This document shows positions 1 through 26,115 of a DNA stretch of 64,000 nt, piece by piece. The DNA lies in contig JAILIP010000002.1 in assembly GCA_024695235.1 (NCBI GenBank), forward strand, positions 7,093 through 71,092, written 5' to 3'. Position numbers and translations under genes: made by a program. The notes beneath the pieces were generated by a model. It saw nothing but the letters and a program-made list of their open reading frames with translations. It made no database searches and was not told the DNA's origin. Each line of letters starts with the position of its first letter. The first letter of the stretch is position 1. Source of the DNA: Bacilli bacterium. Its GTDB lineage: Bacteria > Bacillota_I > Bacilli_A > RFN20 > CAG-826.

Positions 1-456
1 TTCTTAGATGAAGAAAATATCTCTTATAGTCTTCAATCTAATTACTGCAGTTCTGAAACAAGAATCATTGCAAAGAACTACAATATGCCACTAAAAGAAG
101 ACATCAACACTCTTCTAGACAAATGTATTCTTTTAAATACATACCTATCACATTTCTTTGTAGATGGCGGATATATTGAAGCTTATGACATTAGATATCG
201 CGTTGATTACTATAAAGAAAAAACCGAGATGTATCTTCAAACACAGAAGATAGATTTAATGCAAGCCGATAGAGTTCCGTATTGGTATGGATATACAACA
301 AGTGGCTATCAAAACTCTTTATTAATAAATAATTTAGTTGTTGTTAACACTGATGCATCTGATAATGTCGAAGAGTCAAATAATGGTGACTGGGTTGTTT
401 ATAATTACATTTATACCAAACTTGCTGAAGATTTAAAAAAGGAGGTAAGCAGATAG
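1..456 (+). CDS. hypothetical protein, 5'-truncated by window edge
   Basis: Frame 1 is open from base 1 into the 85..456 ORF; no recognisable motif. Confidence 0.45.
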   Translation, partial: FLDEENISYSLQSNYCSSETRIIAKNYNMPLKEDINTLLDKCILLNTYLSHFFVDGGYIEAYDIRYRVDYYKEKTEMYLQTQKIDLMQADRVPYWYGYTTSGYQNSLLINNLVVVNTDASDNVEESNNGDWVVYNYIYTKLAEDLKKEVSR

Positions 457-610
457 ATCTAATTGTTTAAACCTCCGACACATGGATGAGTGAAGGACGA
501 CATTCACTCTACTCATATTGTTTCCATAGTTCCTTCTGTTTATCGAATGAATAATTAATCCAGGATATCCTCAATCTCATCGTTATAATCCTCACTCGTT
601 ATTCTCCTGA

Positions 611-757
611 CACCAGGGTGAGATTCATCACGGAGAAGAAGCCGAACGTATGATTTCGGGACTTTATGATGAAAGAAAAGAAGCCCTTGAGAAGAAAAAT
701 ATTAAGTTGAATGGTGGATTAAAACAGCTTTTGAATAATTACGGAATAAAAGAATAA
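611..757 (+). pseudogene. possible C-terminal gene remnant (open frame without credible start; internal ATG at 650 gives a 35-aa coiled-coil-like peptide)
   Basis: Frame open from the stop at 608-610 to TAA at 755-757 with no RBS; terminator-like hairpin follows at 810-832. Confidence 0.15.
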
Positions 758-809
758 TCGAAACTAAGAACAACACAAAAACAATTAAACAATAAAGATA
801 TATTGATTT

Positions 810-832
810 CACCCGTTGGGTGTTTTCTTTTT
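810..832 (+). terminator. weak rho-independent terminator (caccc-gtt-gggtg + T-run)
   Basis: 5-bp GC stem followed by ttttcttttt. Confidence 0.35.
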
Positions 833-968
833 ATGCTTATATACAAAAGTGTTACACTCTTAAAAGCATCAAACAAACAAAACAAATAAAAACACAAAAA
901 CAATTTACAAACAACATGAGGAGCAATACAATAAAAGTGTCAAAATATTAGACCAGGAGGTAATTATT

Positions 969-1367
969 ATGCTTTGGGAAACTGTAAAAATTAAAAACGA
1001 AAGAAAAGGAAGAACTATGCCTTACGCGAGCGTTGGCTTTGGTAGATTATCTTTAAGTTGCGCTGCATGCGATTTAATTGATGATTTTGACACTTACGCT
1101 TATGTTGAATTACTTAAGGCCGTCGTTAATAATGAAACACTTATTGGTGTTAGATTCCTTAAAGAAGATGCTAAAACGACTAACTCTCTCCCTATTAAGA
1201 GAAGAAAATTGAAAGATGGCAGTGTTGTTGGTGGCATCGATATCTCGAACAAAGGAACAATGGCTGAACTTTTTGGTTTAGCTGGTACACAAAATAAAGC
1301 CACTCGTTATGGAGTTAAGAGAGATCCAGACGAAGAGAACGTTTTAATTATATTTGGAGAAAAATAA
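969..1367 (+). CDS. hypothetical protein (132 aa)
   Basis: Strong RBS ccAGGAGGtaattattATG; no recognisable domain; first gene of the co-directional block preceding AbiH. Confidence 0.5.
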   Translation: MLWETVKIKNERKGRTMPYASVGFGRLSLSCAACDLIDDFDTYAYVELLKAVVNNETLIGVRFLKEDAKTTNSLPIKRRKLKDGSVVGGIDISNKGTMAELFGLAGTQNKATRYGVKRDPDEENVLIIFGEK

Positions 1368-1422
1368 TCTTTGTTAAAGCACAGACATTTAATATAGTTA
1401 TCACCAGTGATTAACTAATGAA

Positions 1423-2526
1423 TTGAGGATTATGGAAAAACTTGTAATTTTAGGGAATGGATTTGATTTAGCATGTGGAATGAAAACATCGTTCTATGAT
1501 TTTTATAAAAATGTTAAAGCAAAAATTGAAATGCCGAACGGATATTTACCTAACTGCAATTTTATACTTTTCCTAATTTATGAAACATTCTTTGCCAACC
1601 AAGACACAACAAAAGCATTTCAAAAAGCATTGGCTATTGATTGTTATGACAATTGGATGGATATCGAGCTGTTATTAAATCATTTTGTTTTGGGTGAAAC
1701 TTTCAAAATAGCTGAGGGGGAATACAATCCAACTTTGCAAAATCGAAATGATTCCTTTATTGCACTACAATTCAGAAAATATTTTCAAAAAAGGAAAAGT
1801 GACATAAGCAATTTTGAACTCTTTGTTCATTCAGAGTTGTATGAATTTGAATTAATGCTGAGAAACTATATAGCTGCTGAAGCATCAAGTGATTTGATTT
1901 ATATGCAGTTTAAAGATGGATTGCTAGAAAAAATTGTTGGTGATCCAAAAACTTGCAAAATAATGACTTTTAATTACACAATACCAACCACGCTGGTCGA
2001 TTATAAAAATGTTAATTATGTGCATGGTTCACTTAGGGGAGAAATAATAGTTGGCATCGATGTTCTAGATTTGCAAAAAGGTGATGGCTACAAGAGAATC
2101 AATGGTGTGGTTAGTGATAAAACCATGTTCACAAAAACAAGAAAAAAACTATCTCATACAGCTATTGACGAAGCAAGCAACAGCGTTTTCGACAAAGATG
2201 TAAAAAAGATATATTTTTATGGTCATTCATTAAGCGAACAAGATTATTCCTATTTCCAAAGTTTGTTTGATTATTATGATATTTATTCGAGCGATATTTC
2301 ATTAGAATTTTGTTATAGCGAATATGATCCGAAAAACCCGGCAGTTGAAGTAGATCGTTTAACAACTCGTGTCTTTAATCTTCTCAATAAGTATGGAGAA
2401 ACATTCGACAACAAGAATCATGGCAATAATCTTTTGCACAAAATGCTCCTTGAAAATCGATTGTCTTTCAGAAAAATAGATTACAAATGTGGAAACAATT
2501 ATCTAAAATTCTTTTGCCAGTATTAG
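1423..2526 (+). CDS. AbiH-family abortive-infection protein
   Basis: N-terminal LVILGNGFDLACGMKTSFYDFY and C-terminal IYFYGHSLSEQDYSYF match the IIGNGFDL...TSY and GHSL..D..YF signatures I recall for AbiH (PF14253). Confidence 0.7.
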   Translation: MRIMEKLVILGNGFDLACGMKTSFYDFYKNVKAKIEMPNGYLPNCNFILFLIYETFFANQDTTKAFQKALAIDCYDNWMDIELLLNHFVLGETFKIAEGEYNPTLQNRNDSFIALQFRKYFQKRKSDISNFELFVHSELYEFELMLRNYIAAEASSDLIYMQFKDGLLEKIVGDPKTCKIMTFNYTIPTTLVDYKNVNYVHGSLRGEIIVGIDVLDLQKGDGYKRINGVVSDKTMFTKTRKKLSHTAIDEASNSVFDKDVKKIYFYGHSLSEQDYSYFQSLFDYYDIYSSDISLEFCYSEYDPKNPAVEVDRLTTRVFNLLNKYGETFDNKNHGNNLLHKMLLENRLSFRKIDYKCGNNYLKFFCQY

Positions 2527-2903
2527 TATTACTTCTTTTATGCACCGGTATTTTTATTAAAATTATAGATTTTTCGCTTTGGCTATTTGCTTTGAAAAAT
2601 TCTAGCCCTGATATCTCTATGGCTGGTGCTATTACCGCTAGAGCATTAGCGTTTATTACATCTTATTCATTGGTTGGCATAATTTTTGATATCTTTGGTT
2701 TGTGGAATAAAAGACTAATGTCAATTGCCTATATTGTTTTTTCGACATTATTAGGATTTTTAGTGGCGTATTTAATTTGGGTTATTGAAACACACATTGT
2801 CGTTCTGATGATTATTATGGGTGTGGCAGTGGTTCTAGTGGTTATTTACTTCCTTGTTACTAAGCTCATCCAAAAGAAAAAACCGGAATCGACTAAGCAA
2901 TAG
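2487..2903 (+). CDS. small integral membrane protein (about 4 TM), start overlaps the AbiH stop
   Basis: Four hydrophobic helices and a K-rich tail; 40-nt overlap with the upstream gene suggests translational coupling. Confidence 0.5.
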   Translation: MWKQLSKILLPVLVLLLLCTGIFIKIIDFSLWLFALKNSSPDISMAGAITARALAFITSYSLVGIIFDIFGLWNKRLMSIAYIVFSTLLGFLVAYLIWVIETHIVVLMIIMGVAVVLVVIYFLVTKLIQKKKPESTKQ

Positions 2904-2948
2904 TAAATTATATTAATAATTCCCTAACTAAAAGTTATAATATTTCCA

Positions 2949-5012
2949 ATGATTACTAAAACAGTTATTAAAGACTATGTAGCGAAAAGATGTCCTTATC
3001 TTGCATCTTTAGAATTAGAAGATAAGTCTCTTGTTCAACTGCTTGAAAAGTCCATTGATAATCAAGAGAAATATCAAGAGCTTCTTTTAGATCAAATTGA
3101 AGATGGAGAAGAAGCTGATTCTTTAATTAATCTTGTGGATGTTTTTAAAGACTATCCTCATTTAAAAAAACAATTAATTAAATATGCGAGCAATAAACCA
3201 AAAAATAAAGCAGAACAATTAGTGGAAAAATATAATGATGACCAAATTGTTTCTAAGCTATCTAGAAGATACTTTGAACTTATATATGGAAAAGATAAAT
3301 GTTTTAGATGTGATGTAAATCTTGATGGAGAAGAAATATTAAATCAGGGACTACTAAGTAAGATTACTGAAGACGCGTTAAAGAACAAAGAAATCAAAGT
3401 TATATTTGAAGGACAAATTGAGTTTTTAGATTTCCGTGCAAGGTTTGATATCATGGTTCGTCAAGATGATGGATCCTTTAGACTTATTGAAGTTAAAGGT
3501 TCTAATTCGGTATTTAAATCTAAAGATGATATTGATAAAGGAATCAAAGATAAATATCTCTATGATATGCTTTTTCAATATTATGTTTATTCTCACGCTG
3601 GATATAACATATCTTCTTTAGCATATATGTATTCTAGTAAAGACTTCTCTTTAAAAATACATTCATATCCTTTAGATGATTCTGAATTTAATGATTTCTT
3701 TATTGTGAAAGACTTCATTGCTTTAAAAGAAGAGACAATGTCACTTAAAAAATACTTTGATGGAGAATACTACGTTCCTAAAAAAGTAGATGATCCAAGC
3801 GAATACACGATTGAAGGAATCATATATGCGATTAAAGATATCGCTAAGATGAAAGATGTTAAACCTGAGATGAGATATCTATGTGTAAAAGGACCAAGAT
3901 GTCCATTCACATCAATGTGCTTCCCAAGTAGTGATGATCCAGATTCATTATTTAAATTAACTAGATGGAATCTATATGGTGGAAACTTTAGAGTGAGTGA
4001 AAAATTGTTAAGCTCAGGAGTAACAAAGATATCTTCTATTCCAGATAACTTAAATACATATTCACCTTTTAAAAGCGATCAAAAAAGACGTAATAATGTT
4101 GTCACTCAAATTGAATATCAAAAAGGAAAGATAAATAAAAAATATGTAATTGATAAATCTTTAATAAAAGAGATTTTAGAAAAAGACTATTTAAATGATG
4201 ATATTGATTACTTACTTTTCTTTGATTTTGAGTCATTTCAATATCCAATTCCTTTAGTAGAACATGTATGTGGTTGGAAACAAGTTGTCTCTCAATACTC
4301 AATGCATGTTGTTAAAAAAGGATATGACTTATCTAAGCATGATTTTGATAAAGGCATTGGAGGAGAAGTTAGACACTTTGAATATATCGCTAATCCGGAT
4401 GTAAGTGGATATATGAATCCGAGCATCGAATTATATGAAACACTAAAAAAACAATTAGAAGAATGCGGCATTGATCCATATGCATCAAACTATAGAGTCG
4501 TTGTTTTCAATAGAAACTTTGAAAAGACAAGAATGAATGAATTTGTAAAAGAATATATTGGACTTGCTAAAAGTGAATTAATAGAGTTTGTGAAAAACTT
4601 TAACAATAATGTTGTGGATCTATTAGACTTTTTCACCTCTGGAGGAATGTATTCAAAAGACTTTAATGGAAGAGGTTCACTTAAAGTTGTTCAACCTACC
4701 TTAGCAAGTGATAAAGATGTAATTGAATATTATAAGAAGATACTACCTTTTGATTTAAGTTATTCTCTTGATTATCACAAGGGCGAAAAGTGTCTTGTAT
4801 ATAACGGAGCGATTTGTCTAGATTTATATAAGTCTTTACTTGTTCGTTCTCATCTTGGTGGTCAAAAAGAAGGTGAACCATCTACAAGTGAATTACTGGC
4901 TGAAGCATTAGCATATTGTAAGATTGACTCTTGGGGCACGGTTATTATTTATGATGTTATTAAAAACGTCTATTTAGGAAAATTAAAACTAGATGCCTTA
5001 TTTGTGCAATAA
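2949..5012 (+). CDS. Cas4/RecB-like PD-(D/E)xK nuclease with Fe-S cysteines fused to an RNase-H-like/DnaQ-like (DUF2779-type) C-terminal domain
   Basis: Cys15, then FDIMV...LIEVKGS...FQYYVY (D / EVK / QxxxY motifs), then CVKGPRCPFTSMC (3 Cys); C-terminal half has LLFFDFESFQ (DEDD-like D-x-E motif). Confidence 0.55.
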   Translation: MITKTVIKDYVAKRCPYLASLELEDKSLVQLLEKSIDNQEKYQELLLDQIEDGEEADSLINLVDVFKDYPHLKKQLIKYASNKPKNKAEQLVEKYNDDQIVSKLSRRYFELIYGKDKCFRCDVNLDGEEILNQGLLSKITEDALKNKEIKVIFEGQIEFLDFRARFDIMVRQDDGSFRLIEVKGSNSVFKSKDDIDKGIKDKYLYDMLFQYYVYSHAGYNISSLAYMYSSKDFSLKIHSYPLDDSEFNDFFIVKDFIALKEETMSLKKYFDGEYYVPKKVDDPSEYTIEGIIYAIKDIAKMKDVKPEMRYLCVKGPRCPFTSMCFPSSDDPDSLFKLTRWNLYGGNFRVSEKLLSSGVTKISSIPDNLNTYSPFKSDQKRRNNVVTQIEYQKGKINKKYVIDKSLIKEILEKDYLNDDIDYLLFFDFESFQYPIPLVEHVCGWKQVVSQYSMHVVKKGYDLSKHDFDKGIGGEVRHFEYIANPDVSGYMNPSIELYETLKKQLEECGIDPYASNYRVVVFNRNFEKTRMNEFVKEYIGLAKSELIEFVKNFNNNVVDLLDFFTSGGMYSKDFNGRGSLKVVQPTLASDKDVIEYYKKILPFDLSYSLDYHKGEKCLVYNGAICLDLYKSLLVRSHLGGQKEGEPSTSELLAEALAYCKIDSWGTVIIYDVIKNVYLGKLKLDALFVQ

Positions 5013-5025
5013 CATTTAAAAAATT

Positions 5026-5051
5026 ATGGAAGCAATGCTTCCATTTTTTTG
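5026..5051 (+). terminator. rho-independent terminator
   Basis: atggaagc-aa-tgcttccat hairpin followed by TTTTTTT. Confidence 0.75.
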
Positions 5052-5105
5052 ACGAATGACACACTTTGGAATTTTTTGACTAGATAAAGGGTAGGAGGAT
5101 ATTTT
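5052..5105 (+). promoter_or_regulatory. promoter/RBS module, copy A (ATGACAcac...TAGATAaagGGTAGGAGG)
   Basis: Near-identical to the sequences at 7321-7371 and 8621-8673. Confidence 0.5.
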
Positions 5106-5870
5106 ATGAACGAATTCCAAATTGTTAAATATGAAGATAACGTCGTTGAATTAGATGTTAATTTTTCAACGGAAGATAATACTGTTTGGTTAACACTAAG
5201 CGAGATGTGCAAATTGTACAAGAAGGACAAGTCTGTTATATGGAGACAAATCAATAATATTTATGTTGAAAACAATGCCTTAAAAGGGGCAACTTATGCA
5301 AAATTTGCAACAGTTCAAACTGAAGGAAATAGAGTGATTAATAGGCTTGTTGATCATTATAAATTAGATATCGTTTTTGAGGTTGGTAAACGAATTAAAT
5401 CTAAGATAGCATCAGCCTTCTATAATTGGTGTCAAAATATACTAAATGAGTTAAAAAACGAACATAAAAGTAACTTTGTTACTTTCCACTCAAATGGACT
5501 AGTACTTGATGCATGTGTTTCTCCTGAAGAAAACACAGTCTACCTAACACAAAATGCAATGGCGGACTTATTTGAAACAAATCAACCAAATATTTCATAT
5601 CATATCAAGAGCATTATTGAAGAAGGAGAACTTAAAAATGAGGCAACTCATAAAAAATTTTTATTAGTTCAAATTGAGGGTGATAGGGAAGTAAAACGAG
5701 AGATGAGTTTTTATAATCTGGATATGATTCTTTCTGTTGGATATCGCGTGAAATCTAAGAACGCAATCCTTTTTAGAAGATGGGCAAGTGATGTTTTAAA
5801 AAGATATTTAGTCAAAGGGTACGCAATTGATGAAAAAAGAACACTTGTCGCACATTACATGAAAGAATAA
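5106..5870 (+). CDS. RhuM-family protein (two tandem RhuM N-domains, no C-terminal region)
   Basis: NTVYLTQNAMADLF...ISYHIKSIIEEGEL...YNLDMILSVGYRVKSKNAILFRRWASDVLKRYLVKGYAIDEKR matches the Virulence_RhuM family signature; the first half is a degenerate repeat of the same domain. Confidence 0.8.
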   Translation: MNEFQIVKYEDNVVELDVNFSTEDNTVWLTLSEMCKLYKKDKSVIWRQINNIYVENNALKGATYAKFATVQTEGNRVINRLVDHYKLDIVFEVGKRIKSKIASAFYNWCQNILNELKNEHKSNFVTFHSNGLVLDACVSPEENTVYLTQNAMADLFETNQPNISYHIKSIIEEGELKNEATHKKFLLVQIEGDREVKREMSFYNLDMILSVGYRVKSKNAILFRRWASDVLKRYLVKGYAIDEKRTLVAHYMKE

Positions 5871-5914
5871 AAAATTATCTTCCTTAATATCAATTAACAA
5901 AAGATAATATTACT

Positions 5915-6598
5915 ATGAAAAATTATCTCGTTACTTTCCTAAAGGGTATATTAGCAGGACTCGCTATTGGACTAGGTGGATTCTTATATATCCTTATGAC
6001 TTTTCTTTTTAGTGGTGATAACGCTGAACTAGGAAAGATATTTGGATCCATATTATTTTCAGTAGGTCTATTCCTTGTATGTACATTTTCTCTATCCTTA
6101 TATACCGGAAAGATAGGTCTAGTGTACGAAGAAAAACAAAGTAAAGAATTTTATATATCCTTACCTATCATGCTTATCGGTAATGCGATAGGAGCATTTG
6201 CGTTTGGATATATATGCTTTTTCATCTTTAGAAGTAGCGATGTATATTTCTCAGCATTAGCCACTGCAAATGCCAGATTACAGTTTAATGATGTATTGGA
6301 TTATCTTACTACTGCTATTAAAGCATTCTTATGTGGACTATGTGTCTATCTTGCAGTTAAATCATTTTCACTCAATAGACTTAAACCATTAGGTATTACC
6401 TTACTAGTATTCTTTGTATTCGTATTTGTCTATTGTGGTTTCCAACACTGTATCGCTAATATGTTCTATTTTGGAATGGCAAATACAATGAGTTGGTATA
6501 CACTCATAAATCTACTAATTGTTATCTTATTTAACTCCTTGGGACCTATTGTTGGAGTGAAACTAGTAAAACTAATTCAAAGTAATTATAGTAAGTAG
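5915..6598 (+). CDS. formate/nitrite transporter (FNT) family channel
   Basis: GILAGLAIGLGG, LYTGK (LFTGN-like) and HCIANMFY (HSIANMF signature); 6 TM. Confidence 0.6.
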   Translation: MKNYLVTFLKGILAGLAIGLGGFLYILMTFLFSGDNAELGKIFGSILFSVGLFLVCTFSLSLYTGKIGLVYEEKQSKEFYISLPIMLIGNAIGAFAFGYICFFIFRSSDVYFSALATANARLQFNDVLDYLTTAIKAFLCGLCVYLAVKSFSLNRLKPLGITLLVFFVFVFVYCGFQHCIANMFYFGMANTMSWYTLINLLIVILFNSLGPIVGVKLVKLIQSNYSK

Positions 6599-7267
6599 CA
6601 TTCCTATAACTATTAAAGCCTGAGCGATTAGATATGTTGACATAACTAAGACCTCGGCTTTTTTAATTGGCTTATAGAATTTGTTGTATACAAGGATAGA
6701 ATCAGATATCACGAACATAAATCCACCGATGGCTGTGATAAATAAATATAGTGGTATTGCCGTGGTTGATAAAATCATCACTAAGAAGTTAAAAAATAGG
6801 ATTGAGAAATACCCCATCATTGTGTATTGTTCAAACTTATTTTGAGTGAGTCTTTTGGCAATTAAATTTGTGGATGCTAAATAGAATAAAACTGCCACAA
6901 CAAAAGCGATGAGATATATCCACCATTGAAGGTGATTTCCGACGATGAGTATCAAAGATACTAAATATAAGATATGACTTGCTGCAAAAGAGAATGATCC
7001 AATATAAAATGGCATCTTCTTTTTAGACACCAAAAGTAAGTCTCCGAGCATTGAGAAGAACACTGCAATGTAAAGGATTGGCTTTGTCGGAATAGTGACT
7101 ATTACAAACACCATCAAAAAGAGAAGACAGAAAGTCTTTTCTTTACGACGAAGTTCATCTTTGTCTAAAGCCGCTAATGCAACTTGGATAATCGAAGCAA
7201 CTAAGAATAATCCGAAAAAGACATAACCTACGATAGGAATGTTTTTAAGAACATCAACAAAGTTCAT
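6572..7267 (-). CDS. YhhN-family (lysoplasmalogenase-like) membrane protein
   Basis: Polytopic membrane protein with a GDLLL motif; overlaps the FNT gene 3' end convergently. Confidence 0.4.
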   Translation of the reverse strand: MNFVDVLKNIPIVGYVFFGLFLVASIIQVALAALDKDELRRKEKTFCLLFLMVFVIVTIPTKPILYIAVFFSMLGDLLLVSKKKMPFYIGSFSFAASHILYLVSLILIVGNHLQWWIYLIAFVVAVLFYLASTNLIAKRLTQNKFEQYTMMGYFSILFFNFLVMILSTTAIPLYLFITAIGGFMFVISDSILVYNKFYKPIKKAEVLVMSTYLIAQALIVIGMLLTIITLN

Positions 7268-7299
7268 AACTAAGTTAATTTTATCTCACTTTCTAAATT

Positions 7300-7371
7300 T
7301 AGTCTCAAATTTTAACGAATTTTGACACACTTTTGATATTTTGGACTAGATAAAGTGTAGGAGGATATTTT
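7300..7371 (+). promoter_or_regulatory. promoter/RBS module, copy B (TTGACAcac...TAGATAaagtGTAGGAGG), including the 33-bp direct repeat at 7300-7332
   Basis: 7300-7332 is identical to 8603-8635; the promoter part resembles copies A and C. Confidence 0.55.
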
Positions 7372-8601
7372 ATGAAATATTCAAAACTAATATCAAATTT
7401 AGAAAAAGTCATTTTCACTGATGGTGATTTTCAGATGGAAATCGATGTAGAAAAAGGGACAAACGAGCCATGGCTATCATTGAATGAGCTGGCTTATTTC
7501 TATTCTAAAGATAAGTCTGATATTACTAGGCATTTAAACCAACGTGGTACAAAAATGCACCTAGCAGTTGCAAAAAATGCACCACCTAGAAGTGATGGTA
7601 AAGTGTACAAAACTTCTTGTTATAATCTTGAAACAATTATCGAAATCGGCTATCGAGTTAATTCGAAAAGAGGACAAAAACTAAAGGCGTTTTTAGATAA
7701 TTGTTTTGATTCAAATCTTATCGAAATTTCTAATGAAATTATTATATATAATAACGGAGATGTATCAATTGATGTTAGAATCTCTCCGCAAGAAAACACT
7801 GTATGGGTATCTCAAGACAAGATTGCCAAGCTATATGATTCATCTAAACAAGTAGTTTCTTATCACATTAAAAATATTCTTGATGATGAGGAACTCGATC
7901 GTTCAGTAGTCAAAGAAATTTTGACAACTGGATTAGATGGAAAAACGTACTCGATTTCTTACTACAATTTGGACATGGTCATTTCTATTGGTTATCGCAT
8001 AAATTCAAAGAAGGGAATTGCTTTTAGAAAATGGGCTGCATCCACACTTAAAGAGTATTTGATGAAAGGATATTTGGTTAATAAAGAAAGAACTCTTATT
8101 ACAAGTGAGAACTATCTTAATCTCGTAAACAAAGTTGATTCTCTTGAAAACAGAATGGACATCATTGAAGAAAAACAAAACCATCTTTTCATAGAGGATA
8201 AAGTCATATATGAGGGAACAGTATTTGATGCAATAGTGTTAATTAACAAACTCATTGAGATATCACACAGTTCCATTGTGCTTATCGATCCGTATATAGA
8301 TGTAAGAACTCTTGATGCCTTTAAAAGCAAAGAAAGAAATATAATGCTTTTCATCATCACATCGAGCAACAACAGACTCAGTGAAAAAGAGAAGCAAGCC
8401 TTCATAAAGCAATATGGTAGACTAAATGTTTTCTTGGATGATAGATATCATGATAGGTACTTAATCTTAGACAAAACATACTTTTACCATCTTGGCACTT
8501 CTATTAACTACCTTGGCAAACATTTCTCTCAAATCACCTTAGTGGTAGACGAAGACATCAAAGATGTTTTGCACCAAAGAATTAGGAACTATTTCCCTTG
8601 A
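7372..8601 (+). CDS. RhuM-family protein (two N-domains plus the about 150-aa C-terminal region)
   Basis: NTVWVSQDKIAKLYDSSKQVVSYHIKNILDDEEL...YNLDMVISIGYRINSKKGIAFRKWAASTLKEYLMKGYLVNKER. Confidence 0.8.
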   Translation: MKYSKLISNLEKVIFTDGDFQMEIDVEKGTNEPWLSLNELAYFYSKDKSDITRHLNQRGTKMHLAVAKNAPPRSDGKVYKTSCYNLETIIEIGYRVNSKRGQKLKAFLDNCFDSNLIEISNEIIIYNNGDVSIDVRISPQENTVWVSQDKIAKLYDSSKQVVSYHIKNILDDEELDRSVVKEILTTGLDGKTYSISYYNLDMVISIGYRINSKKGIAFRKWAASTLKEYLMKGYLVNKERTLITSENYLNLVNKVDSLENRMDIIEEKQNHLFIEDKVIYEGTVFDAIVLINKLIEISHSSIVLIDPYIDVRTLDAFKSKERNIMLFIITSSNNRLSEKEKQAFIKQYGRLNVFLDDRYHDRYLILDKTYFYHLGTSINYLGKHFSQITLVVDEDIKDVLHQRIRNYFP

Positions 8602-8602
8602 T

Positions 8603-8673
8603 TAGTCTCAAATTTTAACGAATTTTGACACACTTATTTGTTTTTTGACTATATAAAAGGGTGAGTGACGATG
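8603..8673 (+). promoter_or_regulatory. promoter/RBS module, copy C, driving only a 12-codon remnant ORF (8671-8709)
   Basis: 33-bp repeat, TTGACA...TATATAAAAGGGTGAGTGACGATG, then a short ORF MYPIRSRINYLY*. Confidence 0.45.
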
Positions 8674-8700
8674 TATCCCATACGCTCGCGAATAAATTAC

Positions 8701-8806
8701 TTGTATTAGTAACTGCATCTAATATATAATTTCATACGCGATAGAAATATCGCTTACTCTCTGCCATTAGCAAATAATGGCCAGAAGACCAAAGGGAGGT
8801 GTCTAT
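8701..8806 (+). promoter_or_regulatory. rpsF promoter (TTGTAT-18-TATAAT) and structured 5' leader
   Basis: -10 TATAAT at 8725-8730; the leader holds two hairpins (gcgata-gaaa-tatcgc and gccatt-agcaaat-aatggc) ahead of the GGGAGG RBS; an S6:S18-binding rpsF leader is known in Firmicutes. Confidence 0.45.
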
Positions 8807-9094
8807 ATGAAAAAGTACGAAGTAATGTACATCCTAAAAGCTGATCTCGAAGAAGAAGCTAGAAAGGCTGAAATTGAGAAGCTTCACGCCATTCTTACAA
8901 GCAATGGTGGTCAAGTCACAAATGTGAATGAATGGGGACTTAGAAACTTTGCATATCCAATCAATGATATGCTCAAAGGCTACTATGTCGTCATCAAAGT
9001 CACAACTGATGAAGTTGCTCTTAAAGAGTTTGTTCGCTTAGCAAAGATCAACCAAAACGTTGTCCGTCACTTAATCACAGTCGATAAAGACTAA
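8807..9094 (+). CDS. rpsF: 30S ribosomal protein S6
   Basis: MKKYEVMYILKADLEEE...; the start was moved from the ORF-track ATG at 8777 to the ATG preceded by the GGGAGG RBS. Confidence 0.9.
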   Translation: MKKYEVMYILKADLEEEARKAEIEKLHAILTSNGGQVTNVNEWGLRNFAYPINDMLKGYYVVIKVTTDEVALKEFVRLAKINQNVVRHLITVDKD

Positions 9095-9892: not shown

Positions 9893-10813
9893 ATGAAACA
9901 TTTAATTGTTGTTAATGGTAGTGCTGGTAGTTACACACCAGAATTCGAAGCCAAAATCGCTGAAGCTTTTAAAGATTTAGACTTTGAAATTTATAAAACT
10001 ACAGGTCCAAAAAGTGTCATCCCATTCTTAAAAGAATATCTCAAGAAAGCAAAAGACACCGTCCGTGTTTATGCTTGTGGTGGTGATGGTACAATCCATG
10101 AAGTCGTCAATGGTGTCATTGGCTTTAAAAATGCTGAAGTCGCTATTGTCGCTACAGGTACCGGTAATGACTTTGTCAAAATCTATGGCGGCAAAGAAAA
10201 ATTCCAAGATTTTGCTAGCTTAATTAAAGGCAAAGCTCATCCAATCGATGTCTCTGAACTTACCGGAGAAGGTGTTGAAGGATCAATGTATAGCGTTAAT
10301 GTCATTAACTTTGGTTTTGATGCGATCGTTGGAGCAATGGGCAACTACTATAAAGAACATGGTTTACCAGAAGGCACCAAAGAAGGTACAAACCCATATG
10401 ATTATGCTTTAAAGCATGACGCTATGAAACATGGTCGTTTCAACGATATTGAAGTATTCGCTGATGGTGAAAAACTCAATGAGAAACAAATGCTTCTTGC
10501 CACGCTTGCTCAAGGTCAATTCGTTGGTGGCCAATTCAAATGCGCTCCAAAGAGTGATAATACCGATGGTCTCATCGATGTCTGTGTTCTTAAGACTATG
10601 ACATTCCTTGGCTTAGGCATGATTATTGGAACATATACCAAAGGCAAACACCTTGATAAGCCACGTAAGAAAATCGTCTATCGTAGAGCAAAGGAAATTA
10701 AGTTCTGCTCACCAAAAGACTTCGATGTCTGTGTTGATGGCGAAATGATCAAAGGAAACAACTTCACAGTTAAAGTTGTTCCAGGCGCAGTCAATCTCGT
10801 CTTACCTGAATAA
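9893..10813 (+). CDS. DagK/YegS-family lipid kinase
   Basis: GGDGTIHEVVNG catalytic motif of the diacylglycerol-kinase catalytic domain. Confidence 0.75.
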   Translation: MKHLIVVNGSAGSYTPEFEAKIAEAFKDLDFEIYKTTGPKSVIPFLKEYLKKAKDTVRVYACGGDGTIHEVVNGVIGFKNAEVAIVATGTGNDFVKIYGGKEKFQDFASLIKGKAHPIDVSELTGEGVEGSMYSVNVINFGFDAIVGAMGNYYKEHGLPEGTKEGTNPYDYALKHDAMKHGRFNDIEVFADGEKLNEKQMLLATLAQGQFVGGQFKCAPKSDNTDGLIDVCVLKTMTFLGLGMIIGTYTKGKHLDKPRKKIVYRRAKEIKFCSPKDFDVCVDGEMIKGNNFTVKVVPGAVNLVLPE

Positions 10814-12037: not shown

Positions 12038-12967
12038 ATGAAAGTGAATACTCATATTTATGATGCAATTGGTCATACTCCTCTTTTTGAGTTAGTTAAT
12101 ATCGAAAAAGAATTTGATCTAAAAGCAAAAGTTGTTGCAAAAGTTGAATATTTCAATCCAGGTGGAAGTGTTAAAGATAGAATTGCTTTAGCAATGATTG
12201 AAGATGCTGAAAGAAAAGGTCTTATCAACAAAAACACAACTATCATTGAACCAACAAGTGGAAACACTGGTATTGGTCTATCAATGATTGCTGCCTCAAA
12301 AGGCTACCGTATTATCATTGTCATGCCTGAAACAATGTCCATTGAAAGAAGAAAGCTCATGAAAGCCTATGGAGCAGAACTAGTTCTCACTGAAGGTAGT
12401 AAAGGCATGAAAGGCGCTATTGCTAAAGCAGAAGAACTTTCAAAAGAAATAAAAAATAGTTTCATTCCTTCACAATTCACAAATCCATCTAACCCGGAAG
12501 TTCACTACAAGACAACTGGTCCTGAAATATATGAGGATATAGATGGCAAACTAGATATCTTCGTTGCAGGTGTTGGAACTGGAGGCACTATCTCCGGAAC
12601 CGGCAAATACCTCAAGGAAAGAAAACCATCTATCAAAGTCGTAGCAGTGGAGCCTGAAACATCTCCAGTGCTTTCAAAAGGCACACCTGGTCCACACAAG
12701 ATTCAAGGTATCGGAGCAGGTTTTGTCCCAGACACTCTTGATACATCAATTTATGATGAGATCATCACGATTTCAAACGAAGAAGCATTCGAAATAGGTA
12801 GACTATCTGCTAGAAAAGAAGGATTACTTGTAGGTATATCCTCAGGTGCTGCTCTAGCGGCAGCCATTAGACTCGCTAAAAAAGAAGAAAACAAAGGCAA
12901 AACCATTGTTGTTTTACTTCCAGACACAGGTGAAAGATATCTTTCAACAGCAATGTTTGAGGAATAA
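12038..12967 (+). CDS. cysK: cysteine synthase A (O-acetylserine sulfhydrylase)
   Basis: [11 protein letters not shown] (PLP lysine), [19 protein letters not shown]. Confidence 0.9.
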
Positions 12968-20992: not shown

Positions 20993-22579
20993 ATGAAGAA
21001 GTTTTTACGTAATTTATTCTCAGGATATTTCTTAGTATTATTTATCCTTTTAATTGAACTAGCGGCAATTATCTTTGTTCAGTTCTATTTAGATGATGTT
21101 ATTAATTGGATTATCCAAGGCAAAGGTGTCAATGTCACAATCATTGTGACAGTGTCATATATTCTTTTAAGAATACTTGTCTTTGTTATCTCAATGATCA
21201 TCTTCTTTAAAATCATCAACAAACCAGAAGATCCGGAATTTAAGATCCCTTGGATTGTTGGAATGCTTCTTTTACCTTTATTCTGTTCAGTACTTTTCCT
21301 TATCTTTGGGAATCATGGTTTATCTAGAAGAGATAGACTTATCGTTGATGCGACAAGAAATGCTTATAACGCCCATTTCTTATTGTCTAAGAAAGATGAA
21401 GAAGTTGCCGCTGAAGAAATGGGGCATGCGGTTGGTACATTTAACTATATCCACAATGTTACAAAACTTGGTATTCATAAGAACTGTCGAGTTACCTACT
21501 ATAAATGTGGTGAAGAATTCTTTCCTGCCATGATTGAAGGACTTAAGAAAGCCAAAGAATTTATTCTTATGGAATTCTTTATCATCACTGATGGCAAAGA
21601 ATGGGATGAAGTAAAAGAAATACTTATCGAAAAAGCCAAAGAAGGCGTTGATATCCGTCTCATCTATGATGATATGGGTTGTGGTGGAACTATATCAGCG
21701 TTCACTCCAAGAAGACTTGGTAAATATGGAATCAAATGCTTTAAGTTCCATCCGTTTAGACCAATCCTTTCAGGAGTCTACAATAACCGCGACCATAGAA
21801 AAATCGTTGTTGTTGACCATCAAATGGCTTTCACAGGCGGAATCAACCTCGCTGATGAATACGCGAACGAAATTGTTCGTTTTGGCTATTGGAAAGACAC
21901 TATGGTGAAGATTGAAGGAAGTGCAATTAACAATTTAATCACAACATTCCTTCAAAACTATGACCTTGCTAGTAGATCAGTTTCTGATTACAACAAATAT
22001 CTTACATATGACTATCCTAAGTTTGACAACGAAGGATGTGTCATGCCATTCGGAGATGGTCCTGGCGGAATCGATGATGCCTTAATTGGCGAGCAAACAT
22101 ATATCAATATCCTTAACTACGCGAAAAAGAAAGTTTATATATCCACTCCATATTTAGTTCCAACATACTCATTACTTGACGCAATGAGAAACGCCGCCCT
22201 TCGTGGAGTAGAAGTGCATCTTATCGTTCCAGGTATTCCTGATAAGAAGATAGTGTACGCAGTAGCAAAATCTAACTTTAGATATCTTCTTGATGCTGGA
22301 GTGCATATTTACACATACACTCCTGGATTCAACCACATGAAATCTGCTATGGCGGATGACGAACTTGCCTTTGTTGGAACAATTAACTTTGACTTTAGAA
22401 GCCTTGTTCACCATTTTGAATGTGGAACAGTGTTATACAAATGTAACTGTATGAATGATATTAGAGATGACTTTGAAACTATGATTGCGCAAAGCGAAAA
22501 GGTTCCTGAAAACTTCAAACTTAAACACGGTACTAAATCTCTCACTAACTTGATTAAGATTATTACTCCATTATTATGA
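20993..22579 (+). CDS. cls: cardiolipin synthase
   Basis: N-terminal TM helices; two PLD HKD motifs HRKIVVVDHQMAFTGGINL and HMKSAMADDELAFVGTINFD. Confidence 0.85.
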   Translation: MKKFLRNLFSGYFLVLFILLIELAAIIFVQFYLDDVINWIIQGKGVNVTIIVTVSYILLRILVFVISMIIFFKIINKPEDPEFKIPWIVGMLLLPLFCSVLFLIFGNHGLSRRDRLIVDATRNAYNAHFLLSKKDEEVAAEEMGHAVGTFNYIHNVTKLGIHKNCRVTYYKCGEEFFPAMIEGLKKAKEFILMEFFIITDGKEWDEVKEILIEKAKEGVDIRLIYDDMGCGGTISAFTPRRLGKYGIKCFKFHPFRPILSGVYNNRDHRKIVVVDHQMAFTGGINLADEYANEIVRFGYWKDTMVKIEGSAINNLITTFLQNYDLASRSVSDYNKYLTYDYPKFDNEGCVMPFGDGPGGIDDALIGEQTYINILNYAKKKVYISTPYLVPTYSLLDAMRNAALRGVEVHLIVPGIPDKKIVYAVAKSNFRYLLDAGVHIYTYTPGFNHMKSAMADDELAFVGTINFDFRSLVHHFECGTVLYKCNCMNDIRDDFETMIAQSEKVPENFKLKHGTKSLTNLIKIITPLL

Positions 22580-23076
22580 TCAACTTTGATGAACTTGAAC
22601 CCATATATCTTTCACTCCTAAATGATGAAAGAATCAAAAAGATGAAAGATATTTCAATGCATAATGGATCTAATTGTTATATCCATTCTTTTAAGGTTGC
22701 AAAACGTTCACTTAAAAAAGCTGATAGATGCAAAAAAGAACTTAATGGTAAAGCTCTTCTATACGCGTGCATACTACATGACTATTATTTATATGATTGG
22801 AGAAAAGACCGTTCCAAAAAGAAACATCACGGAAGTAAACATCCATTAATTGCGGCAGAACAAGCTCAAAGAGATTTTGGAATTGATGAATTCACAGCAT
22901 CAATAATTAAATCTCACATGTATCCACTTAATCATAAATATAAGCCAGCATCCAAAGAGGCCAAGATTCTTCTTTGGAGTGATAATGTCATTGCGACAAA
23001 AGAGTTCATGACATCTAAAAGACGTAAAAAAAGAAAAGAAAACCAATATCTCGAATATATTTCTAAAATAAGATAA
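22576..23076 (+). CDS. HD-superfamily phosphohydrolase-like protein
   Basis: H...HD spacing (HSFKV...CILHDYYLYDW); 4-nt overlap with cls. Confidence 0.4.
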   Translation: MINFDELEPIYLSLLNDERIKKMKDISMHNGSNCYIHSFKVAKRSLKKADRCKKELNGKALLYACILHDYYLYDWRKDRSKKKHHGSKHPLIAAEQAQRDFGIDEFTASIIKSHMYPLNHKYKPASKEAKILLWSDNVIATKEFMTSKRRKKRKENQYLEYISKIR

Positions 23077-25722: not shown

Positions 25723-26115
25723 GGGTCTGACACAGTTTCGACAGGGATGATTGCTTGGCAATAACTGCAGCCGAGTGGTGACGTAATCACCAAACAAAAA
25801 TAACTGACAACAGTTACATGAGAGCTCCAAGAGCTCAAGCATTCTGCGCAGCTTAATTAAGCTCCCGACATAGGGTTCCGACGCAAGGCGCCGGCCAGAT
25901 CACCTCTTGATGGATTAGCCTTTCTTCGTCAATAAAGGTGTTAAATGAAAGGATAGGTTAAGACAGTTGACTTGCTAACCTTAGCCGAATATCAAAAAGT
26001 CTCGCGAAGATAGTTACGATATACGATGCTTCGTTAAAGATAAATATCGTCTAAGCTGTAGACGTTATTGTAGGGCCTTCCTTGGACACGGGTGCAATTC
26101 CCGCCAGATCCACCA
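25723..26115 (+). ncRNA. ssrA: tmRNA (SsrA)
   Basis: 5' GGGUCUG pairs with 3' CAGAUCC-ACCA including a G3:U wobble (alanine identity); 3' GGACACGGGUGCAAUUCCCGCCAGAUCCACCA T-arm/acceptor; TATAAT -10 at 25702-25707; intrinsic terminator follows. Confidence 0.85.

Follow-up and report, generated by a model that had tools for sequence, protein, structure and literature searches.

The 64,000-nucleotide stretch of DNA analyzed here (the window) contains a compact block of three co-directional genes on the forward strand. Gene 1 (positions 1432 to 2526) encodes an AbiH-family, SIR2-like protein of 364 amino acids when read from the ATG at 1432 (a TTG at 1423 is an alternative start), gene 2 (2487 to 2903) encodes a membrane protein of 138 amino acids with about four transmembrane (TM) segments, and gene 3 (2949 to 5012) encodes a DUF2779 protein that combines a Cas4-like PD-(D/E)XK domain with a DEDDh domain. 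Genes 1 and 2 overlap by 40 nt, genes 2 and 3 are separated by 45 nt, and an intrinsic terminator on the same strand (5026 to 5051), a bidirectional hairpin (ATGGAAGC-AAT-GCTTCCAT) with a T-run, follows gene 3, which confirms the layout given in a preliminary description of this DNA. A consensus scan located a promoter-like site on the forward strand at 1371 to 1398 (TTGTTA-16-TATAGT, 9/12), between the stop codon of the open reading frame at 969 to 1367 and the ATG at 1432, and a second one ahead of gene 3 at 2913 to 2941 (TTAATA-17-TATAAT, 10/12); both are predictions from consensus matches, whose count in this region equals the shuffled expectation. No terminator was found between genes 2 and 3 and, given the overlap of genes 1 and 2, all three genes could be co-transcribed from the gene 1 promoter. 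A Pfam scan of the flanking genes (85 to 8601) identified hypothetical ORFs, AbiH, gene 2, RhuM, FNT, YhhN and again RhuM, and rpsF follows at 8777. The block had rightly been placed in an accessory island near rpsF. The same scan revealed no cas gene, and gene 3 does not have the location of a CRISPR-associated Cas4. An Rfam scan of positions 1 to 9000 gave no matches, a PHROGs search was uninformative, and no convincing integrase, tRNA or flanking direct or inverted repeat that would mark an insertion was found around the AbiH segment.

The assignment of gene 1 to AbiH was borne out by the Pfam model PF14253 (89.3 bits, cut-off 30.9; model positions 1 to 249 of 260) and by the presence of both motifs, the N-terminal GNGFD loop and the C-terminal GHSL..DxxYF, whereas the match to the PADLOC AbiH model PDLC02345 was partial (E 5e-8, 30.8 bits, positions 2 to 211 of 343). 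The fold is a SIR2-like Rossmann fold with a Gly-rich loop and a sirtuin-type Asn/His pair, and its closest matches in a fold comparison were defence SIR2 proteins, in agreement with the SIR2-like fold of AbiH in the literature (PMC13064643; bioRxiv 2024.09.18.613514). The codon score of the gene, a measure that also mirrors amino-acid composition, was atypical (0.147, below all 29 training genes). AbiH was found in 77 viral or prophage loci and on 55 plasmids, of which 35 are mobilizable or conjugative; the plasmid genes are solitary, and those elsewhere have variable neighbours. Relatives of gene 1 sit in R-M/BREX islands, prophages and plasmids, and its homologues are sparse, unlike the dense ladder of gene 3 homologues. 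Its closest relative (61%, locus L113) has a gene for a polytopic membrane protein 40 nt downstream, which was considered as a distant relative of gene 2 and found not to be homologous, and in the next-closest relatives a soluble DUF2971 protein comes after AbiH. DUF2971/PDC-S31 genes recur downstream of type I hsdR and AbiH genes; no DUF2971 remnant was found in the window. The C-terminal 10 to 14 residues or so of the gene 1 product, encoded where the gene runs over the start of gene 2, are non-conserved and disordered. Gene 1 is most probably a horizontally acquired, single-gene, AbiH-type predicted abortive-infection protein. If it acts like other defence SIR2 proteins, it would most likely be triggered by a phage component and consume NAD+, which would abort the infection.

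Gene 2, correctly identified beforehand as a small 4-TM membrane protein, had no match in Pfam, PADLOC (E<=0.01), NCBIfam or PHROG, and none among plasmids and phages. A word-index search returned gene 2 alone, as expected of an orphan, but an exhaustive HMMER search overturned this result and yielded 77 relatives at E<=1e-3, whose alignment shows conserved W32, L33, S44, G64, S86 and E101. The codon score of gene 2 (0.147) is coding-like and equals the atypical value of gene 1, a value that native membrane genes of this DNA (FNT and YhhN) typically have as well, and its start has no Shine-Dalgarno sequence. Gene 2 is thus a member of an uncharacterised family of predicted proteins of about 140 amino acids and about four TM segments; the definition of this family, with 77 representative clusters, is a possibly useful by-product of the analysis.

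The description of gene 3 as a Cas4-like/RNase-H-like nuclease also held. The protein matches the DUF2779 model PF11074 (76.4 bits, cut-off 23.3; residues 424 to 577) and has an N-terminal Cas4-like PD-(D/E)XK domain with the D...E-x-K motif, followed at the C terminus by a DEDD(h/y) 3'-5' exonuclease domain that retains every acidic residue, so that both predicted nuclease active sites are intact. Residues C15, C312, C318 and C324, candidate ligands of an Fe-S cluster, are invariant in a Cas4-type pattern, the structure model being of low confidence at residues 1 to 39. With 39.9 bits against a cut-off of 225 for the UU173 model (NCBIfam NF045869), gene 3 falls into a different DUF2779 subfamily. 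A search of PADLOC-DB v2 gave no matches at E<=0.01. Among the family checks that had been proposed, the AbiH and DUF2779 Pfam models matched, whereas PADLOC gave a partial match for gene 1 and none for genes 2 and 3. Because the gene 3 profile retrieved only noise from the PDB sequences, a fold comparison was needed, and it returned DEDDh plus Cas4, the architecture already published for DUF2779 (PMC3985635, PMC13621843). The quasi-essentiality of DUF2779 in JCVI-syn3.0, a phage-free minimal cell, suggests that gene 3 likely has a housekeeping role in the processing of DNA ends, in repair or recombination.

Gene 3 has more than 120 full-length homologues at 50 to 81% identity, and the boundaries of the AbiH insertion rest on comparisons at such distances, the closest gene 3 relative compared being 81% identical. 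As a single-protein query of the genome collection it retrieved one locus, and a metagenome alignment scan was more useful. The DAGK gene of the window (9893 to 10813) lies directly upstream of gene 3 in one related locus (L018), and in another (L001) gene 3 is directly followed by the region that in the window spans 20993 to 23076 (cls and HD). The codon score (0.374) is within the native range, no relatives were found in viral contigs, and the only plasmid matches were eight distant ones on non-mobilizable plasmids. The -10 box of gene 3 is separated from the ATG by 7 nt, with no Shine-Dalgarno sequence, and a TATAAT-like box recurs 6 to 10 nt before the ATG in six other loci (L011, L001, L031, L013, L025 and L018); moreover, DNA homology with the gene 3 loci of relatives starts at 2934 to 2936, inside the promoter-like site, and runs to about 5001. 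Gene 3 is, on this comparative evidence, the native, vertically inherited DUF2779 gene of the lineage with its own conserved predicted promoter, from which it would be transcribed with a very short leader or none.

The preliminary description had regarded the block as a dedicated three-gene composite defence system, a proposal that failed the co-occurrence test set for it beforehand. When 122 fetched sources (1.26 Mb) were searched with profiles, the window alone had the trio, the pair of genes 1 and 2 or the pair of genes 2 and 3, and the same gene order was not found in multiple unrelated genomes, as a conserved operon would have it. None of about 88 other AbiH loci contained a gene 2 relative or DUF2779, AbiH was missing upstream of gene 3 in all 13 distinct loci whose upstream sequence reached 1.5 kb or more, and both partners were absent from the contexts of the gene 2 family (L116-119 and L120-121), whose members were never found with AbiH or DUF2779 elsewhere. 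In L120, genes of 387 and 684 amino acids were considered as AbiH and DUF2779 and are neither; the 684-residue protein has a signal-peptide-like N terminus. The proposed linkage of gene 3 with AbiH was met in one other distinct locus only (L004/L005), where an AbiH of 24% identity is encoded 2.5 kb downstream of gene 3, behind a type II R-M pair. These counts refer to about 18 distinct gene 3 contexts, many of them short metagenome contigs, and to two other distinct contexts for the gene 2 family. At the DNA level, homology to relatives falls into separate blocks, one for AbiH at 1430 to 2482 and one at 2934 to 5001 for gene 3 together with its -10 box.

Taken together, these results make it probable that three genes with independent functions lie side by side here and do not form one system. 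The 40-nt overlap would most simply be a junction effect, in which the AbiH frame runs some 10 to 14 codons past the family homology into the start of gene 2. Counting against independence are the tight packing and possible co-transcription of the genes, a local functional unit being compatible with the comparative data, as well as the membrane protein of L113, which, though unrelated to gene 2, hints at a possible analogous pairing, and the second occurrence of AbiH near gene 3 in L004.

Nevertheless, AbiH might work with gene 2 as a two-gene module, the membrane protein acting for instance as anchor, sensor or second effector, with gene 3 as an unrelated neighbour. The overlap and the missing Shine-Dalgarno sequence of gene 2 are compatible with translational coupling, but the overlap falls in the non-conserved, disordered AbiH tail; likewise, genes 1 and 2 have the same atypical codon score, but so do the native FNT and YhhN genes. 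The closest AbiH relative also has a small polytopic membrane protein next to it, and small TM ORFs come after a few prophage AbiH genes (L093, L082, L054 and L079); however, the former is not homologous to gene 2, the next-closest relatives precede soluble DUF2971 proteins, and the gene 2 family, whose members occur alone or in other contexts, stands beside none of the roughly 88 other AbiH genes. Since, in addition, plasmid AbiH genes are solitary and AbiH is defined as a single-gene system (PMC13064643), we consider such a module unlikely.

Gene 3 has different neighbours in each locus, and these are in many cases defence genes; in about half of the distinct loci (~9 of ~18) an R-M or defence gene is directly adjacent. 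They include GmrSD, starting 10 nt after gene 3 (L014), PDC-S05 (L025), HNH (L006), a C5 MTase (L032), type I R-M with DUF2971 (L029 and L030, in the latter of which DUF2971/PDC-S31 overlaps the gene 3 start by 4 nt), and type II R-M, AbiH and NERD/AAA-protease genes (L004), and no defence neighbour was seen in L001, L011, L018, L026 and L027. This pattern, drawn from about 18 metagenomic loci, suggests that in related genomes a variety of defence and R-M genes have repeatedly landed in the flanks of gene 3; in this genome the cargo would be AbiH on one flank and RhuM/PDC-S05 on the opposite one. Hotspots beside arbitrary core genes are common, which argues against reading a shared function into the clustering.

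One possibility is that this Bacilli/Mollicutes-related lineage uses the conserved DUF2779 Cas4-DEDDh protein as a core nuclease in immunity or against mobile DNA, and that exchangeable defence modules gather around it and perhaps act together with it; AbiH and the membrane protein would be the modules here, and type I R-M-DUF2971, GmrSD, type II R-M and PDC-S05 those elsewhere. We regard this as improbable. Slightly less probable still is that gene 3 is a conserved nuclease that acts in immunity or against mobile elements and forms the nucleus of a defence island, its neighbours clustering by shared function and not by mere preference for an insertion site. The frequent adjacent R-M and defence genes, some in operon-like arrangement (L014 and L030), the Cas4-like domain, and the 'immunity connection' proposed for MMSYN1_0389 (PMC13621843) speak for this nucleation, but DUF2779 is quasi-essential in a cell that meets no phage, gene 3 is vertically inherited, its homologues form a dense ladder and its chromosomal surroundings are stable, it has no PADLOC match, and several of its loci have no defence neighbour.

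That genes 1 to 3 form one composite defence operon, an AbiH-based system to which the Cas4-like/DEDDh nuclease would contribute the effector or the processing function, is hardly credible: co-directional, tight packing with a single strong terminator after gene 3 and none between, two intact predicted nuclease sites and the AbiH 2.5 kb from gene 3 in L004 would fit it, but the trio occurs nowhere else in the 122 sources, gene 3 has wholly different neighbours in every other locus and its own conserved predicted promoter, and was found neither at AbiH loci nor in viral contigs or on mobilizable plasmids, the homology blocks of genes 1 and 3 are separate, and neither gene 2 nor gene 3 matches a PADLOC model. 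A composite system would have represented a novel multi-gene architecture with AbiH at its centre; the evidence points instead to an ordinary single-gene AbiH homologue that landed beside a conserved nuclease, which is not a new system. The flanks of DUF2779 in rumen or gut Bacilli may provide an inexpensive route to new defence genes, and the defence genes there offer a hint, no more, on the biology of this quasi-essential family.

With AbiH of Lactococcus lactis (one of the 'SIRim' SIR2-like proteins), gene 1 shares the Pfam family, both motifs and the SIR2-like fold, and the R-M/BREX islands, prophages and plasmids that harbour its relatives resemble the setting of other AbiH genes. It differs from known AbiH in that its identity to the AbiH proteins on plasmids of lactic acid bacteria is only about 28 to 30%, its PADLOC match is partial, and its non-conserved C-terminal tail extends over the next gene. 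The surroundings of gene 3 resemble defence-island or integration hotspots flanked by core genes, in that gene 3 is conserved and its neighbours change wholly and are rich in R-M, Abi and candidate defence genes, whereas, unlike in known integration hotspots, no integrase, tRNA or direct repeats were found around the AbiH segment. Gene 3 itself shares the two-domain architecture of the DUF2779/PF11074 proteins (MMSYN1_0389 of JCVI-syn3.0, Mbov_0804; RNase-H-like family F.17), including Tyr at the h position of DEDD(h/y), and like them it is chromosomal and lineage-conserved. MMSYN1_0389 keeps only two of the four Cas4-type cysteines; all four are conserved in gene 3, whose N-terminal half shares its fold, catalytic motif and four-Cys pattern with Cas4 and solo-Cas4 proteins.

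The anatomy drawn in the preliminary description was found in full, and its gene calls were good. Three co-directional ORFs encode an AbiH-family SIR2-like protein (g1, 1423-2526), a small membrane protein (g2, 2487-2903, 138 aa) and a DUF2779 (PF11074) nuclease (g3, 2949-5012, 687 aa), with a 40-nt overlap between g1 and g2, a 45-nt spacing between g2 and g3, and a terminator-like 8-bp GC-containing hairpin plus T-run 3' of g3 (5026-5051). The start of g1 at ATG 1432, which gives the 364-aa protein annotated by NCBI, agrees with the N termini of its homologues. Close packing is not unusual in this genome, as illustrated by the 44-nt gap between the first RhuM-family gene downstream of g3 and the FNT transporter gene, and by the overlapping FNT and YhhN genes.

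The proposal that g1, g2 and g3 form one composite phage-defence system was checked in 122 sources (1.26 Mb) seeded separately on each gene, all ORFs being searched with profiles of the three families. In this profile search the g2 family was found together with AbiH or DUF2779 nowhere except in the window, and, outside the window, L004/L005 alone combined DUF2779 with AbiH. The AbiH protein of L004 shares 24% identity with g1; 2.5 kb separate its gene from the DUF2779 gene upstream, with genes for a type II methylase and a restriction enzyme and one gene of no assigned family in between. For 13 distinct g3 loci the upstream sequence extends to 1.5 kb or more, and none of them has an AbiH gene there; DUF2779 was absent from about 88 other AbiH loci. 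With the trio restricted to the window and a single co-occurrence of two families elsewhere, the composite system was not upheld.

The histories of g1 and g3 are separate. DNA similarity to AbiH loci covers 1430-2482, that to g3 loci, seen in many independent contigs, begins at 2934/2936 and ends near 5001, and the 451-nt segment between these blocks, which holds g2, matches neither set of loci. More than 120 full-length homologues of g3 form a dense ladder from 81 to 50% identity, and the AbiH series steps from 100% to 61, 59, 47 and 41%. Homologues of g3 keep near the same core genes as in the window: the diacylglycerol-kinase gene (9893-10813) is directly upstream of g3 in L018 (88% amino acid identity), and in L001 the cardiolipin-synthase-like and HD genes (20993-23076) are directly downstream, with the gene at 12135-12714 also nearby. 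The codon score, which partly reflects amino acid composition, was inside the native range (0.466 ± 0.128) for g3 (0.374) and below all 29 training genes for g1 (0.147). AbiH relatives occurred on 55 plasmids, of which 35 are mobilizable or conjugative, as well as in 77 viral or prophage contigs; relatives of g3 were found in no viral contigs and, only as distant ones, in 8 non-mobilizable plasmids. Because AbiH homology ends at about residue 350 of g1 (close homologues have 350-355 aa) and the last 12 residues, encoded in the stretch overlapping g2, are predicted to be disordered, we infer that the 40-nt overlap is a by-product of the junction rather than a designed coupling.

Among the nearest AbiH relatives with readable context, AbiH is followed by DUF2971 in L007 (59% identity to g1), lies between type I hsdS-hsdR and DUF2971 in L008/L009 (47%), comes after BREX in L010 (39%) and ends the order DUF2971, C5 MTase, Eco57I, AbiH in L115 (40%); plasmid AbiH genes are solitary. 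The nearest relative of all (L113, 61%) has a polytopic membrane protein gene 40 nt downstream (1474-1875, cut by the contig end), whose product was ruled out as a g2 homologue by BLASTP and profile comparison. DUF2971 genes (PADLOC candidate PDC-S31; L008 4804-5763, L007 1817-2752, L029 2680-3603, L030 4966-6087, L115 1-829) recur after type I hsdR, AbiH or both, and in many cases the stop codon of one gene overlaps the start codon of the next; a type I R-M-DUF2971 block immediately precedes the DUF2779 gene of L029 and L030. Such genes may represent a conserved module that travels with type I R-M loci as a hitch-hiker.

g2 had no match in Pfam, NCBIfam, PADLOC or PHROGs, and a word-index protein search returned only g2 itself, missing the family entirely. 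An exhaustive HMMER search yielded 77 representative clusters (P0242-P0317), 34 at E ≤ 1e-10, of 130-160 aa, with about 30-46% identity in end-to-end alignment; positions W32, L33, S44, G64, S86 and E101 are conserved in the family alignment. The g2 codon score (0.147 per codon) lies above the highest value among 51 decoy ORFs, 0.066, and matches those of the other membrane genes in the window (FNT, 0.151; YhhN, 0.146). On account of these relatives, conserved positions and coding-like score, g2 is a real gene, a member of an uncharacterised 4-TM family of proteins of about 140 aa. In the two other distinct contexts, neither of which has AbiH or DUF2779, the gene of this family is solitary with surface-protein genes on either side (L116-119) or follows two DNA methylases (L120-121). 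The g2 product is thus a conserved small polytopic membrane protein, and no evidence linking it to defence was seen.

Promoter-like sites are predicted before g1 (1371-1398, 9/12 consensus match) and before g3 (2913-2941, TTAATA-17-TATAAT, 10/12), the latter ending 7 nt before the ATG. Since promoter-like matches across the region equal the shuffled expectation in total number, the argument for a g3 promoter rests on conservation and not on the scan. A box resembling TATAAT, 6-10 nt upstream of the DUF2779 ATG, with no Shine-Dalgarno sequence, is shared by the window (2936-2949), L011, L001, L031, L013, L025 and L018, and a terminator-like hairpin precedes it in L001 and L031; the more distant genes of L006, L017 and L028 have a normal Shine-Dalgarno sequence. 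These recurrent predicted signals suggest that g3 is normally transcribed as a monocistronic mRNA whose leader is very short or absent. Read-through from g1 into g3 is possible because no terminator lies between g2 and g3 in the window.

The immediate neighbours of g3 homologues change with every locus, and many of them have restriction or defence functions: GmrSD, 10 nt beyond the end of g3 (L014), ORF6N/PDC-S05 in the slot that RhuM/PDC-S05 occupies in the window (L025), an HNH protein (L006), a C5 methylase (L032), type I hsdR followed by DUF2971/PDC-S31, which runs 4 nt into the start of g3 (L030), and type I hsdR, DUF2971 and a HEPN-AbiU2-like gene, this last a sub-threshold match (L029). 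L004 has NERD helicase, AAA-protease and ADP-ribosylglycohydrolase genes upstream and type II R-M plus AbiH downstream. Its upstream run of defence-like genes (1-5135) comprises a NERD/ResIII helicase, a small RNAP-alpha-CTD-like protein, the ADP-ribosylglycohydrolase and an AAA-ATPase fused to a trypsin-like protease (similar to PADLOC RT-Protease_XI/PDC-M35A). In L001, L011, L012, L018, L021, L026 and L027 the neighbours are ordinary or of no assigned family. Defence-type genes thus directly adjoin g3 in roughly 9 of 18 distinct loci, a purely qualitative indication. The most economical interpretation places g3 next to a hotspot where accessory and defence genes accumulate; that the nuclease has an immune role of its own is less likely.

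In the window, g1, g2 and g3 lie in a variable region upstream of rpsF, and reading them as a single system is not supported. Two RhuM-family genes (5106-5870 and 7372-8601), both scoring strongly (up to 283 bits) against PDC-S05, a PADLOC candidate system, flank the FNT transporter (5915-6598) and YhhN (6572-7267, minus strand) genes; the second is extended C-terminally by a stretch of weak VPA1262-like and AAA_12 similarity. A 56-nt element with TTGACA...TAGATAAA stands before RhuM1, RhuM2 and rpsF (5033-5088, 7299-7354 and 8602-8657; 68-88% identity), with a partial inverted copy at 925-946, and a 118-nt repeat occurs at 5057-5174 and 7323-7440. Each RhuM-containing insertion appears to have been accompanied by a duplication of the rpsF promoter region. 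Upstream of g1, a 500-nt A-rich intergenic region (457-968) carries imperfect direct repeats (753-795 and 872-914, core CACAAAAACAATT); it has no Rfam match, and the flanking ORFs (85-456 and 969-1367) gave no family match. A tmRNA gene (25723-26115) encodes the tag peptide DNSYMRAPRAQAFCAA, and ARAGORN detected no tRNA gene within the 64 kb.

As an AbiH family member with a SIR2-like fold and conserved Asn and His residues, g1 would respond to a phage trigger by consuming NAD+, leading to abortive infection. The g3 protein combines two nuclease folds (Cas4-like and DEDDh) whose catalytic residues are intact, has four conserved Cys and may be an Fe-S-containing nuclease that processes DNA ends in a housekeeping role. 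The locus is an acquired AbiH homologue beside a g2-family membrane gene and the conserved DUF2779 nuclease of the lineage. What it still offers is a newly defined g2 family and the association of the hotspot with DUF2779.
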